A DNA stretch of 64,000 nt from Escherichia phage KBNP1711. Of the stretch, positions 27,101-31,031 are shown in pieces. Location: sequence record NC_023593.1; one strand, given 5' to 3'. Every line of letters begins with the position of its first letter. Position 1 is the first letter of the stretch. The notes beneath the pieces are model-generated. The model had not been told where the DNA came from. It worked only from the letters and a program-made list of their open reading frames with translations, and ran no database searches. The position numbers and the translations under genes are program-made.

Positions 27101-27586
27101 TCAATGTGTGTGATTCCAGTTTAATCCTATCTGACAATCAGATGCCAGAGGACATTCCATCTTGAGGTACTCACCAGCTTTCTTAACACAAAGCTCTGTA
27201 AGCTCTTTTAGCTTTTGTGCATCATTACGGTGAACAGAGAACTGCCCTTCATCGTGCATGTCAATAACCTTCGCACAACGAACACCATCACGCTCAATCC
27301 ACTTGTTAAGGAAAAGCATGGCATACTTCATAACAATCGCACCAGCACTCTGTAATAGGGTATTCAGTGCTTTATGAACCATTACCTTACCTGTTGCATC
27401 ACGTCTCATTGTAACACGACGACCATCAACACCCAAGATATAACCTTGAGCTGCCTTCTCTGTCATACGTTCAATAAGAATTGCAATACAAGGATTCTCT
27501 GCCAAGAAACGTGCTCTCATTACTGCACCTTCTTCAGAGCCTCCACCAACGATAGAACCGAGCTTAGCATCACCTGCCCCATCAAT
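27101..27586 (-). CDS. DNA polymerase (family A, T7 gp5-like), exon 2 / C-terminal part
   Basis: Reading frame open upstream of the track Met gives ...IDGAGDAKLGSIVGGG... then HKALNTLLQSAGAIV and HDEGQF (motif C), colinear with T7 DNA polymerase after motif B; 5' boundary approximate. Confidence 0.65.
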   Translation of the reverse strand: MDGAGDAKLGSIVGGGSEEGAVMRARFLAENPCIAILIERMTEKAAQGYILGVDGRRVTMRRDATGKVMVHKALNTLLQSAGAIVMKYAMLFLNKWIERDGVRCAKVIDMHDEGQFSVHRNDAQKLKELTELCVKKAGEYLKMECPLASDCQIGLNWNHTH

Positions 27587-28367
27587 AGTTCAAGCAAAGG
27601 CGCTACTCTTTGCTCCGTTCTCTTATGAACTGCTTACAGTTTCCTGTAAGATCGGACTATATCTTCATCTCCACCTTTACGTGCTGAGAGACAGGCGCTT
27701 CCGTAACACTTGTTACGTACTCCCTTCCGGGATAGTCTCTGAACTTTCCGTGACACAAACTTTTCTACATAGATCAATGAACTGAGCATCAGATAGTTTA
27801 CCTTTTGCATTATTCACTTCCCAAGTTACCCATTGGACATTTCCAATTTCGTAACCTTTCGAATTATCCTTCCTATCTAAAGAAAGTTTATTCGGATGTC
27901 CGCTGACGAAAGATAGTGAATCTCCTGTCAAGGCACATTTGTAGTTTTGCTGAGAAAGAAGCTCGAATAAATAGTCTTGAGTAATCGTGAACTCAAAACC
28001 CCTTTCTCTAGCTCTGTGATGGGAGTTGTGATATCTCTCACGAACCGCTCCACCCCAAGTTTGTCGATATTGTCCCATAGCAGCAGATGCTGCACTTCTG
28101 TTTCGACGTCTCCACTCATTTGAAGCAATGAGAGCACAATTTTTTACATTGACATTGCTTTCCATCTTTACTCTTAGATGAATTATGGAAACTGTCGAGT
28201 GGCTTTTCTTCGCCACAGCTTGAACATATCTTTGTCATAAACACCTCCTTGTGTTGATGTTTATGTCACGGCTTAGCTGCTGATTGGCATATCTTTCGAC
28301 TTAGCTTTCCAGCAATTCACCTGTTTTGCTTCTGCACATTTCTATGCAGTGAACCAATTATTTAGTT
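27587..28367 (-). mobile_element. intron (group I-like) carrying an HNH homing endonuclease ORF, inserted at polymerase motif B
   Basis: Polymerase frame broken by stops between ...RDNAKTFIYAF and IDGAGDAKLG...; intervening ~780 nt has its own RBS and endonuclease ORF; boundaries +/- about 10 nt. Confidence 0.55.
27713..28238 (-). CDS. intron-encoded HNH homing endonuclease with apparent frameshift
   Basis: ATG 28238 with AAGGAGGTG RBS encodes MTKICSSCGEEKPLDSFHNSSKSKDGKQCQCKK then stops; HNH domain (HNSHHRARERGFEF...DRKDNSKGYEIGNVQWVTWEVNNAK) continues in another frame after an A6 run near 28140. Confidence 0.6.
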
Positions 28368-29729
28368 AAAGGCATATATAAATGTCTTCGCATTGTCACG
28401 AGTAGGAAGACCAGCAAGTCTCTGATTATGAGAATGGATATCACCTTCTAACAGAATATCACGATACATAACAGCAGAAGCTAAACCACGTTCAGCTAAT
28501 GCTTTCTTACCAGCGTTACCTTCTGCAATTGCTTCAGCAAGCATGTCTCTACACTCTTTAATGAGGTAGTGAGCAAGCATACGAAGCTCTAATCCAGAAC
28601 CATCATAACCTAGGAAGAGTTCTCTACCAGCTGGTACATAATACTTATATAACCCTACTGGTTTGTCTTTCTTTCCGGGTTTTCCACGTTCGTAGATAAC
28701 GTTTGTATTTTTTCGTAAGTAACACCCATCAGGGATATTGTTGGTAATGATGAAAGGATAGTTATGACTATCATCTGTGGAGTAGTTAGATTGAAATAAA
28801 CTCCTACACTCGTGACCAAACAGACCGCGAGAAGGAATATTAACAACAATGCGATGTTTAAAACGAAATGTCGGAGTAGCGCAGCTATTAGCTTCCGCTG
28901 AGAGTTTACCATCTGGACGTTCCTTATCAATCAGTCCATTAATCAAGCCTAGTCTGTGAGCCGCTACAACACGTCTCTTAAGCAGACTTCCCACCTTACC
29001 TAGATCACCCTCAAGACCTTCTTCAAGAGTCTCTTCGAGGTTTGTAGGAGCTGTGGGCCACTTGTTCGAAGTAGCTAATGCTCTCTTAATTTCATCAAAG
29101 GTTACAGGTTTCTTCCTGTTAGGGTTTAAACCTAAACCAAAGACATAAGCCTTCATGTAGTTGACAGTTTTGTGACGAAAGTGCTTATCCAAGAATTTCT
29201 TGATATCAGCATCAACCATCTGAGCTGTCTGTCGCTCTTTCTCATTGCCACGCATCCAAGAGTTGTACCATTCTTGATACGTTCCACACTTACGCAAGGC
29301 TCGCTTAATCTCAAATGTGTTCCAAGGCTTCTTAGATGTATTAAATTCTGGAGGAAGAAAACCTTCATCCATCAGTGCTTCTTTAACTCGTGCATCCTTT
29401 GATGGGTCAAAGTCAACATACTCAACACAAGTAAAAGCTCCACCGATATCTTCCCTCTTTAACCCCACTCTGTCACAATATAATTGAGGCCACTTCTGAA
29501 GAGCACCAGTCTTCTTAAAGGGTTTCATGTAAGTAGAACCATCAACCCTCATCTTAGGTAACAGAGGAATCAGCTCTCTGTCGATGTTAACGATAATCTC
29601 TCTGAGAAGGTGAACATACCACCGTGCATTCCTCCGATTAAAGTTGACACCACTCTTCGCTTGCTTTGAAATTATATCAGCGACAGTCATCTCCGTTAAG
29701 AACGGAAGTACATCAGGGTTCTCCATCAC
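28368..29729 (-). CDS. DNA polymerase (family A, T7 gp5-like), exon 1: polymerase domain through motif B
   Basis: GYDGSGLELRMLAHY (motif A) and LPTRDNAKTFIYAF (motif B/O-helix) align with T7 gp5 GIDASGLELRCLAHF / LPTRDNAKTFIYGF. Confidence 0.7.
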
Positions 29730-30716: not shown

Positions 30717-31031
30717 TTAACTTGAGCTTAAAGCCCCTTTGCGACCGCCAGCTGATTTTCCAGCGCGATCTCCACTTTTGCCGCCAGCTGAACGATTTCC
30801 GCTGACTGTCTCAACACGTAAGTTGCTTGACGCATTAGAGCCTCCTGATTTAATGGCTCGTTTGTGTCCGACATCTTTACCTTTGAGTGCAGATTTTCCA
30901 ACGCGTTTTTCAACGATGCGACGTGCACGGTGGCGCTGAGCATCTCCGCTCTTACTTCCAACTCCCGTTTCACCTCTTGCGATGGCTGTACGTCTTTCTT
31001 GTGCATAATCTCTTTTAGCCTTATCAGTCAT
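30717..31031 (-). CDS. highly basic Gly/Ser/Lys/Arg-rich protein (possible nucleic-acid binding)
   Basis: AAGGAG RBS 6 nt before ATG 31031; overlapping alternative-frame ORF 30728..31006 lacks an RBS. Confidence 0.45.
   Translation of the reverse strand: MTDKAKRDYAQERRTAIARGETGVGSKSGDAQRHRARRIVEKRVGKSALKGKDVGHKRAIKSGGSNASSNLRVETVSGNRSAGGKSGDRAGKSAGGRKGALSSS

Follow-up and report, generated by a model that had tools for sequence, protein, structure and literature searches.

The interrupted polymerase gene

The genome of Escherichia phage KBNP1711 (NC_023593.1), a phiEco32-like (Gordonclarkvirinae) phage of E. coli by megablast, encodes a family-A DNA polymerase on the minus strand, and this gene is interrupted by additional DNA that carries an endonuclease gene. 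The interruption is very probably a mobile group I intron of subgroup IA2, placed inside the O-helix tyrosine codon of motif B and presumably self-splicing. The stretch analysed (the window) comprises 64,000 nucleotides (nt) of that record, and all features given below lie on its minus strand. The nearest relatives, phages KarlSchell_Bas89 (Bas89) and EP335, are ~98% identical to it in the polymerase region and ~94% identical over a further 24 kb (megablast).

In the list of open reading frames (ORFs), the first polymerase frame ends with ...RDNAKTFIYAFN and a TAA at 28364-28362, and a second polymerase-like frame picks up ~780 nt downstream and ends at 27101, as a preliminary description made from the letters of the window had noted. 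The first listed ORF has 455 codons (29729-28362, GTG start, end ...LPTRDNAKTFIYAFN), the ATG that matches EP335 being at 29726. The polymerase gene of EP335 is uninterrupted (1845 nt, 614 amino acids, aa) and reads TTT ATC TAT GCG TTC AAC TAC GGA GCA GGT, i.e., FIYAFNYGAGD, at the corresponding place. Alignment of the two alleles, ~98% identical in the exons, leaves exactly 781 extra nt in the KBNP1711 window, from 28363 (AAATAATTGG...) to 27583 (...GAACTATTG), with ATGGGGCAGG as the first bases of the second exon at 27582. Because the EP335 gene is uninterrupted and the extra DNA is exactly 781 nt long, the interruption is not a matter of chance. The parts of the gene are the following:

28364..29726, minus strand: polymerase exon 1; from ATG 29726 to the U of ...AACU (28364); colinear with EP335 up to residue 454 and base 1 of codon 455
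27583..28363, minus strand: predicted group I intron (IA2) of 781 nt, from AAAUAAUUGG to GAACUAUUG; ends placed by alignment with intronless EP335
27583, minus strand: intron-terminal G (omega G), predicted 3' splice site; kept in all copies
27101..27582, minus strand: polymerase exon 2; starts AUGGGGCAGG; stop codon 27103-27101; coordinates by string search

Joined at AAC T|AT GGG, the exons give 1845 nt and 614 aa, as in EP335, and the protein reads ...FIYAFN-Y-GAGDAKLG, colinear with EP335 across ...FIYAFNYGAGDAKLG.... The spliced exon junction would be ...GCCUUUAACU|AUGGGGCAGG. The 5' exon ends with ...AACU (28364) and the intron with ...UAUUG (27583), and the U.G pair of helix P1 is invariant among all copies. 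The EP335-derived junctions, set independently, still land on the conserved P1 U.G pair and the terminal G of Rfam model RF00028. The stop of the exon 1 frame, U|AA, straddles the 5' splice site.

The insert of the preliminary description is thus real, and its span needs correction by alignment to EP335: it was placed at 28367-27587 and extends from 28363 to 27583. The candidate junctions proposed there (following GCCTT and GCTTG) are displaced by 5 and 8 nt, respectively, and are therefore wrong by the same alignment; they yield FIYALTIDGAG, two residues longer than the intronless EP335 protein. If the cryptic 3' site (following GCUUG) were used with the true 5' site, the frame would stop at once. 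The ID of IDGAGDAKLG, formerly read as exon, is encoded by the last intron bases (AUUG|AU) and is in frame by coincidence. An apparent duplication of exon sequence in some metagenome contigs, where tblastn carried exon 2 back to residues 429-435, consists of stop-containing intron sequence and was discarded as alignment noise.

A pairing between the exons accompanies the junction. Exon bases -10 to -6 (GCCUU, 28373-28369) are complementary to exon bases +3 to +7 (GGGGC, 27580-27576) and are paired by RNAalifold; a double change (GCAUU/GGUGC) keeps the pairing in the lineage of the metagenomic phage L010, and the two intronless alleles examined have a mismatch. It could be a helix that aligns the splice sites, or merely a set of markers linked to the intron through co-conversion.

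Ribozyme structure and covariation

A covariance-model search with RF00028 finds two partial matches on the minus strand, one at each end of the insert, with 48.1 bits (E 8e-11) and 34.7 bits (E 9e-7). Phage LAMP (MG673519) carries at the same site a 304-nt derivative from which the ORF has been deleted, and this copy scores 100.8 bits (E 3.7e-27) with the entire model covered. The retained ribozyme segments of LAMP are identical to those of the window, and its deletion takes out exactly the content of the P6a loop. Subgroup IA2 is defined by the extra helices P7.1 and P7.2 between P7 and P3', joined by G-U-A (PMC3428280). The insert has UCCCGGAAGGGA - GUA - CGUAACAAGUGUUACG at 27732-27702 and is of subgroup IA2 by this definition. 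The ribozyme is made up of the following elements:

28352..28367, minus strand: P1; exon AACU and the first intron A pair with UGGUU (internal guide); U(28364).G invariant; one compensatory change
28332..28349, minus strand: P2 hairpin CUGCAUAGAAAUGUGCAG; C-G changed to U-A in the L005 lineage and to A-U in the L010 lineage
28318..28324, minus strand: P3 5' strand ACAGGUG; pairs with 27691-27697; C-G to U-A change in two lineages
28277..28315, minus strand: P4-P5-P4' domain; invariant, neutral for covariation; agrees with the Rfam consensus
28259..28271, minus strand: P6/P6a 5' strand CCGUGACAUAAAC; 13-bp helix with 27748-27760; the ORF insertion starts in the following loop
27748..27760, minus strand: P6/P6a 3' strand GUUUGUGUCACGG; within the ORF
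27733..27744, minus strand: J6/7 and P7 5' strand GUUCAGAGACUA; conserved Rfam core; P7 pairing with 27654-27659 100% kept, invariant
27702..27732, minus strand: P7.1 UCCCGGAAGGGA, GUA linker and P7.2 (CGUAAC AAGU GUUACG); IA2 signature; three compensatory pairs in P7.2
27691..27697, minus strand: P3 3' strand CGCCUGU; from pair counts and RNAalifold
27668..27689, minus strand: P8 hairpin; one compensatory pair
27654..27659, minus strand: P7 3' strand UAGUCC; after the conserved GAUGAAGAUA segment
27592..27650, minus strand: hairpins P9 (27633-27650), P9.1 (27617-27630) and P9.2 (27592-27615); three compensatory pairs in P9, two in P9.2

The structure was examined by comparison of ORF-less cores from three independent lineages, two diverged lineages having been recovered from metagenomes via endonuclease homologues. 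More distant endonuclease homologues (P0007, P0008, P0009) were set aside for this purpose, being free-standing genes in unrelated phage contexts. RNAalifold recovers de novo P1 (with the U.G), P2, P3, P4, P5, P6/P6a, P7.1, P7.2, P8, P9 and two terminal hairpins; of the 89 pairs, 13 have compensatory changes and no pair is disrupted. In a hand-built structure that includes the P7 pseudoknot (86 pairs), all 344 of 344 cells are standard pairs, and 12 pairs show double changes vs. 0-1 in slid controls, where partners were shifted by 1-3 columns. None of 500 shuffles reaches the observed covariation value. The preliminary description had named the Rfam search and the foldability of P1-P9 as checks on its intron, and it is borne out on both, the core with its P3/P7 pseudoknot being supported by the comparative data. 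A segment near the 3' end, GCCTTTGCTTGAACTAT, had been considered as a duplication of the target site, a reading now rejected, since it forms the 3' side of P9.2, a hairpin with compensatory changes.

On this structure, the polymerase gene would be transcribed as a single pre-mRNA, in which the intron RNA would fold into the P1-P9 ribozyme. Guanosine would attack after the exon-terminal U (28364), paired to G in P1, and the freed exon would then attack after the intron-terminal G (27583), giving ...AAC U|AU GGG... and restoring the 614-aa polymerase. The exon 1 stop across the 5' splice site would keep ribosomes out of the ribozyme. The gene in the P6a loop would be served by its own ribosome-binding site (RBS), its 3' end overlapping P6a', P7, P7.1 and P7.2.

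The endonuclease gene

The strong RBS AAGGAGGTG (28250-28242) and the ATG at 28238 sit in the loop of the 13-bp P6a helix. From there the endonuclease frame crosses P6a', J6/7, P7 and P7.1, and its stop lies in P7.2. In KBNP1711 the gene consists of these parts:

28242..28250, minus strand: RBS AAGGAGGUG; 3 nt upstream of ATG 28238; string search
28116..28238, minus strand: endonuclease N-terminal fragment, frame 1; Zn-ribbon-like CxxC...CxC; premature stop after the frameshift
28140..28145, minus strand: frameshift site, A6 run; +1 nt vs. A5 in Bas89; AAGAAU or AAGAGU in metagenomic copies
27713..28139, minus strand: endonuclease C-terminal part, frame 2; nuclease domain CALTG...LDR..D..KGY...N.QWV...N..K; stop UAA 27715-27713 within P7.2

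The N-terminal fragment has 42 codons as listed (28244-28116, GTG 28244) and 40 codons from the ATG that the RBS serves, and a 167-aa fragment is listed from a GTG at 28216 to 27713. In Bas89 and in metagenomic copies the gene is intact at 174 aa; between intact copies, synonymous and non-synonymous codon differences number 51/26, 48/29 and 45/39.

The A6 run is probably a real inactivating mutation rather than a sequencing error. This is favoured because the insertion is the sole uncompensated indel in ~6.5 kb compared with Bas89 and EP335, so that the assembly is not generally error-prone, and because a non-synonymous substitution, Arg36 to Leu, is found at a distance of 9 nt. Homing elements that have become fixed are moreover expected to undergo decay of the endonuclease: the ORF is deleted in LAMP, and frameshifted intron endonucleases have been reported in Bastillevirinae. 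The converse view, that the extra A is an error of sequencing or assembly, or is bypassed by slippage, and that the endonuclease is actually intact and active, is rather unlikely. An additional A in an A run (A6 vs. A5 in Bas89) is a classic site of homopolymer error, and, besides this insertion and the one adjacent Arg-to-Leu codon, two synonymous changes are all that separates the ORF from that of Bas89. The A runs at which transcriptional slippage is efficient are usually longer than six. Programmed frameshifting at this run was considered and is unlikely, the orthologues having a single reading frame and no homopolymer there (AAGAAU or AAGAGU). The endonuclease is thus probably dead in the KBNP1711 phage, and because of the 1-nt insertion the intron would now persist as a splicing-only passenger.

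By structural match, the ORF product has the HNH (beta-beta-alpha-metal) nuclease fold. Of the curated profile families scanned (Pfam, NCBIfam, PHROG), only PHROGs match it, with 1035 ("endonuclease VII", 1e-43) and 3118 ("HNH endonuclease", 1e-17), and a single-sequence search of the PDB gave a chance match only. N133 and N142 are invariant and Y129 is nearly invariant among the endonuclease family, and the motif aligns with the DR..GY..N..N of PacI. Because PacI is an active HNH-fold enzyme with Tyr as base, the product is best described, from its sequence, as a PacI-like variant of the HNH fold and not as a classical H-N-H enzyme. PacI itself (PDB 3LDY / 3M7K) differs in that it is a type IIP restriction enzyme, small and homodimeric, rather than a homing enzyme.

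Two observations concern relatives of the endonuclease. Its C-terminal nuclease domain matches proteins annotated as "Srd anti-sigma factor" or "decoy of host sigma70" in T4-like Klebsiella and other phages (PHROGs 1400 and 4592); either these annotations are wrong, or Srd-like proteins derive from the nuclease fold of the endonuclease family. Bas89 has, upstream of its polymerase, a free-standing "HNH endonuclease" gene, Bas89_0051 (344-849 of the Bas89 locus), which is missing from the window (~30734-30753) and from EP335, so that the homing-endonuclease content of the gene cluster varies.

Distribution, alternatives and known systems

The intron of Bas89 (PQ850613) is 780 nt long, 99.6% identical to that of KBNP1711 and located at the same site, with the 174-aa "endonuclease" intact. 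In LAMP, the exons are only 81-88% identical to the window and the retained intron segments ~99-100%. The GenBank records of both deposited isolates give the polymerase coding sequence (CDS) as a two-piece join, and that of Bas89 has an "endonuclease" annotated inside. They differ from KBNP1711 in that the endonuclease is intact (Bas89) or deleted (LAMP) rather than frameshifted, and the RNA is neither annotated nor classified in those records.

In metagenomes, a 781-nt variant (contigs L005-L009) is 85% identical to the window intron, and a 779-nt variant is 82.6% identical, its host phage polymerase being only ~69% identical. Most of the variation among the copies falls in the ORF; the parts that make up the ribozyme show high conservation and differ by compensatory changes. 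The 781-nt variant is base-for-base identical in the five contigs L005, L006, L007, L008 and L009, which come from different samples and whose exons encode protein 76-93% identical to that of EP335; the variant would thus have passed from phage to phage very recently. The greater conservation of the intron than of the exons, together with its occurrence in several exon backgrounds, lends indirect support to homing, in which intact endonuclease copies would presumably cut intronless polymerase alleles during co-infection and repair would copy the intron in. Besides the window, just 2 of 81 related phage records contain the intron.

The flanks GCCTTTAACT|ATGGGGCAGG are common to every phiEco32-like intron-plus allele, and the two intronless alleles compared, EP335 and PAS59, have GC(G/A)TTCAACT|ACGGAGC, i.e., four synonymous differences within -8 to +5. 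Such flanking markers would be expected from co-conversion and/or target immunity. The intronless, intact, frameshifted (KBNP1711) and deleted (LAMP) states appear, on sequence comparison, to make up a textbook homing cycle. A more diverged copy of the 5' half of the intron, with a longer P5 region, occurs in L019 (1684-2498; Logan SRR23967709), a contig that ends before the 3' half; its endonuclease is 66% identical to that of Bas89, and the copy again follows an upstream ORF-bearing insertion.

Other explanations of the interruption are very unlikely, because the ribozyme is conserved and covaries, exon 2 has no start signal, stops lie in frame, and deposited phage isolates share the ribozyme. 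A truly split polymerase, with two parts translated separately and assembled without RNA splicing and with a free-standing endonuclease gene between them, would agree with the in-frame stop of exon 1, with the separate listing of the parts by automatic gene callers in metagenome contigs and in Acinetobacter phage KEN_01, and with the free-standing genes in which endonuclease homologues occur elsewhere. It is nevertheless most improbable, as the break falls within the O-helix tyrosine codon, the exon 2 boundary has neither start codon nor RBS (the first in-frame ATG is 20 codons downstream), the flanking non-coding segments are a conserved group I ribozyme whose junctions follow the U.G and terminal-G rules, and LAMP has lost the ORF and kept exactly the ribozyme. 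Hardly any more weight attaches to the view that the insert is a decayed, non-splicing remnant or a chimeric assembly and that the polymerase is non-functional in the KBNP1711 genome. A remnant would suit an endonuclease that is already decaying, and splicing itself is deduced from the DNA; against it, the ribozyme core is 100% identical to that of the isolate LAMP and 99.6% to that of Bas89, 86 of 86 modelled pairs are intact, and so are the exons, which are colinear with EP335. Inteins, too, occur at conserved sites of replication proteins, and an intein or another protein-level element has a negligible probability here: the polymerase frame runs into a stop at the junction and into more stops within the insert, a profile scan found no intein domains, and the RNA evidence is strong.

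The intron interpretation has its own weak points. The full-length copy in the window scores under the Rfam gathering cut-off of 50 bits, each of its two matches falling short because the ORF (476 nt in the P6a loop) splits the model. Covariation is drawn from no more than three independent lineages, P4, P5, P7 and P7.1 do not vary among the copies and are therefore uninformative in this respect, and the P10 pairing is weak (~2 bp). The endonuclease gene is split in the KBNP1711 window; scans of the endonuclease against Pfam and NCBIfam gave no family at E <= 0.1; the first-His (general base) position of the canonical His...Asn...His/Asn motif is taken by an invariant Arg (D121-R122); and the match to the PacI profile is marginal (E 0.027, identity ~22%). 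Finally, we infer from sequence comparison all of splicing, guanosine dependence and endonuclease cleavage. The central proposal of the preliminary description, a group I intron with an HNH-type endonuclease gene in motif B of the polymerase, nonetheless holds by the Rfam model, the covariation, the U.G and terminal-G junctions, the restored ORF and the HNH-fold match. As to its endonuclease ORF with an RBS of its own, the RBS and the reading frame are present, but the frame is shifted in the window and the product has neither the canonical first His nor a Pfam HNH match.

The interrupted codon corresponds to Tyr530 of T7 gp5 in an ungapped alignment (PDB 2AJQ numbering). It belongs to motif B in the O-helix, with Lys522 and Tyr526 just upstream. 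From the motif B correspondence, we take it to be that of Tyr766 in E. coli Pol I. Published polymerase intron sites are, in Pol I numbering, 674 (SPO1, SP82, Bastille, Pf-WMP3), 676 (phiL7) and 881 (T7-like PhiI and W31), the site of the last two being taken second-hand from the paper that lists them all (PMC3428280). The earlier suggestion that introns are known at this very position in T7-like phages is therefore unsupported by that paper, since the sites listed in it are 674, 676 and 881. In the literature searched, the Tyr530 / Tyr766 codon was not found as an intron site, no paper was found that describes a KBNP1711-type intron or introns in phiEco32-like or Gordonclarkvirinae phages, and the word "intron" is absent from the BASEL paper describing Bas89.

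Other inserts are found close by. The T7-like Acinetobacter phage vB_Ab_1137_KEN_01 (L013, 1987-2643) has a different, intron-like insert 7 nt upstream of the KBNP1711 site (junction ...KPRAFA|NQYGAS...), its polymerase being annotated as two CDSs with an "HNH endonuclease" between; with a partial RF00028 match of 32.5 bits, this looks like an unannotated group I intron. The metagenomic phage L010 (2174-3653; also L011 and L012; Logan SRR25400274 and related runs), with a polymerase ~69% identical to that of EP335, carries a pair of group I introns in tandem within motif B. The first of them, intron A, is located after ...AAGACGUU, ~17 nt upstream of the KBNP1711 site, and has a 161-aa ORF of the same DR..GY..N family; it is followed by a 17-nt mini-exon, UAUCUACGCAUUUAACU (2858-2874), and then by the homologue of the KBNP1711 intron. 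Motif B thus seems to attract introns. A second, different insertion in the same polymerase gene lies between EP335 residues 564 and 565 in phage PAS59 (L004, 3245-3851), in L005 (3985-4591) and in L006. It has a 131-aa ORF with PF13392 (HNH_3) and, immediately ahead of the last exon, a partial RF00028 match of 30.9 bits; the PAS59 annotation treats it as separate genes, and it is missing from the KBNP1711 window.

Mechanistically this is an ordinary mobile group I intron, and little is conceptually new, since group I introns with homing endonucleases have been known in phage polymerase genes since 1990; the points of interest, modest as they are, concern where it is inserted, the PacI-like family of its endonuclease and the natural series of alleles. 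The known range of such introns now includes phiEco32-like coliphages and, as an insertion site, the O-helix tyrosine codon, which is critical for catalysis. More broadly, the motif B tyrosine codon may be a fourth homing site of phage family-A polymerases, served by biochemically uncharacterised PacI-like endonucleases (Asp-Arg...Gly-Tyr...Asn...Asn, with Tyr instead of His as general base), motif B may be an intron hot spot, and phiEco32-like phages may present a complete natural allelic series, a proposal for and against which we see the case as evenly balanced. For annotation, the polymerase should be given as one joined 614-aa CDS, not as two fragments and "hypothetical proteins", and the endonuclease should be flagged as disrupted. 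The PacI-like HNH variant family is without a Pfam model and widely mis-annotated ("Srd anti-sigma factor", "endonuclease VII", hypothetical), and could yield rare-cutting or nicking enzymes. Alleles with the endonuclease intact, frameshifted, deleted or absent, all in easily grown E. coli phages, suit studies of homing and intron decay.

Among known systems, the introns of PhiI and W31 (AY769989, AY769990; I-TslI) are alike by their published description, being IA2 introns of an enterobacterial podophage family-A polymerase with an RBS-bearing ORF in P6a (PMC3428280). They are located at Pol I 881, whereas the KBNP1711 intron is at the T7 Tyr530 / Pol I Tyr766 codon. The P7.1-GUA-P7.2 arrangement and the ORF starting in P6a match the IA2 layout described for PhiI, W31 and Pf-WMP3, and in Pf-WMP3 the ORF begins in P6a and extends into P7-P7.2, with a stop codon at the intron start (PMC3428280). 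In SPO1, SP82, Bastille, Pf-WMP3 and Xanthomonas phage phiL7, too, the fingers region of a phage family-A polymerase is interrupted by a group I intron with an endonuclease of the HNH family, but at sites 674 and 676 and with I-HmuI-like endonucleases of the canonical DH...N...N/H motif. I-HmuI, I-HmuII, I-BasI and I-PfoP3I are nicking enzymes, whereas the KBNP1711 endonuclease is PacI-like (DR...GY...N...N), with no Pfam match. The T4 introns of td, nrdB and nrdD (sunY) are phage IA2-type ribozymes as well, and their endonuclease ORFs, too, loop out from a peripheral helix. The KBNP1711 allelic series fits the homing-cycle model of T4 introns, with gain, fixation, endonuclease decay and loss, while the T4 introns themselves reside in other host genes and encode endonucleases of other families (GIY-YIG or other enzymes).

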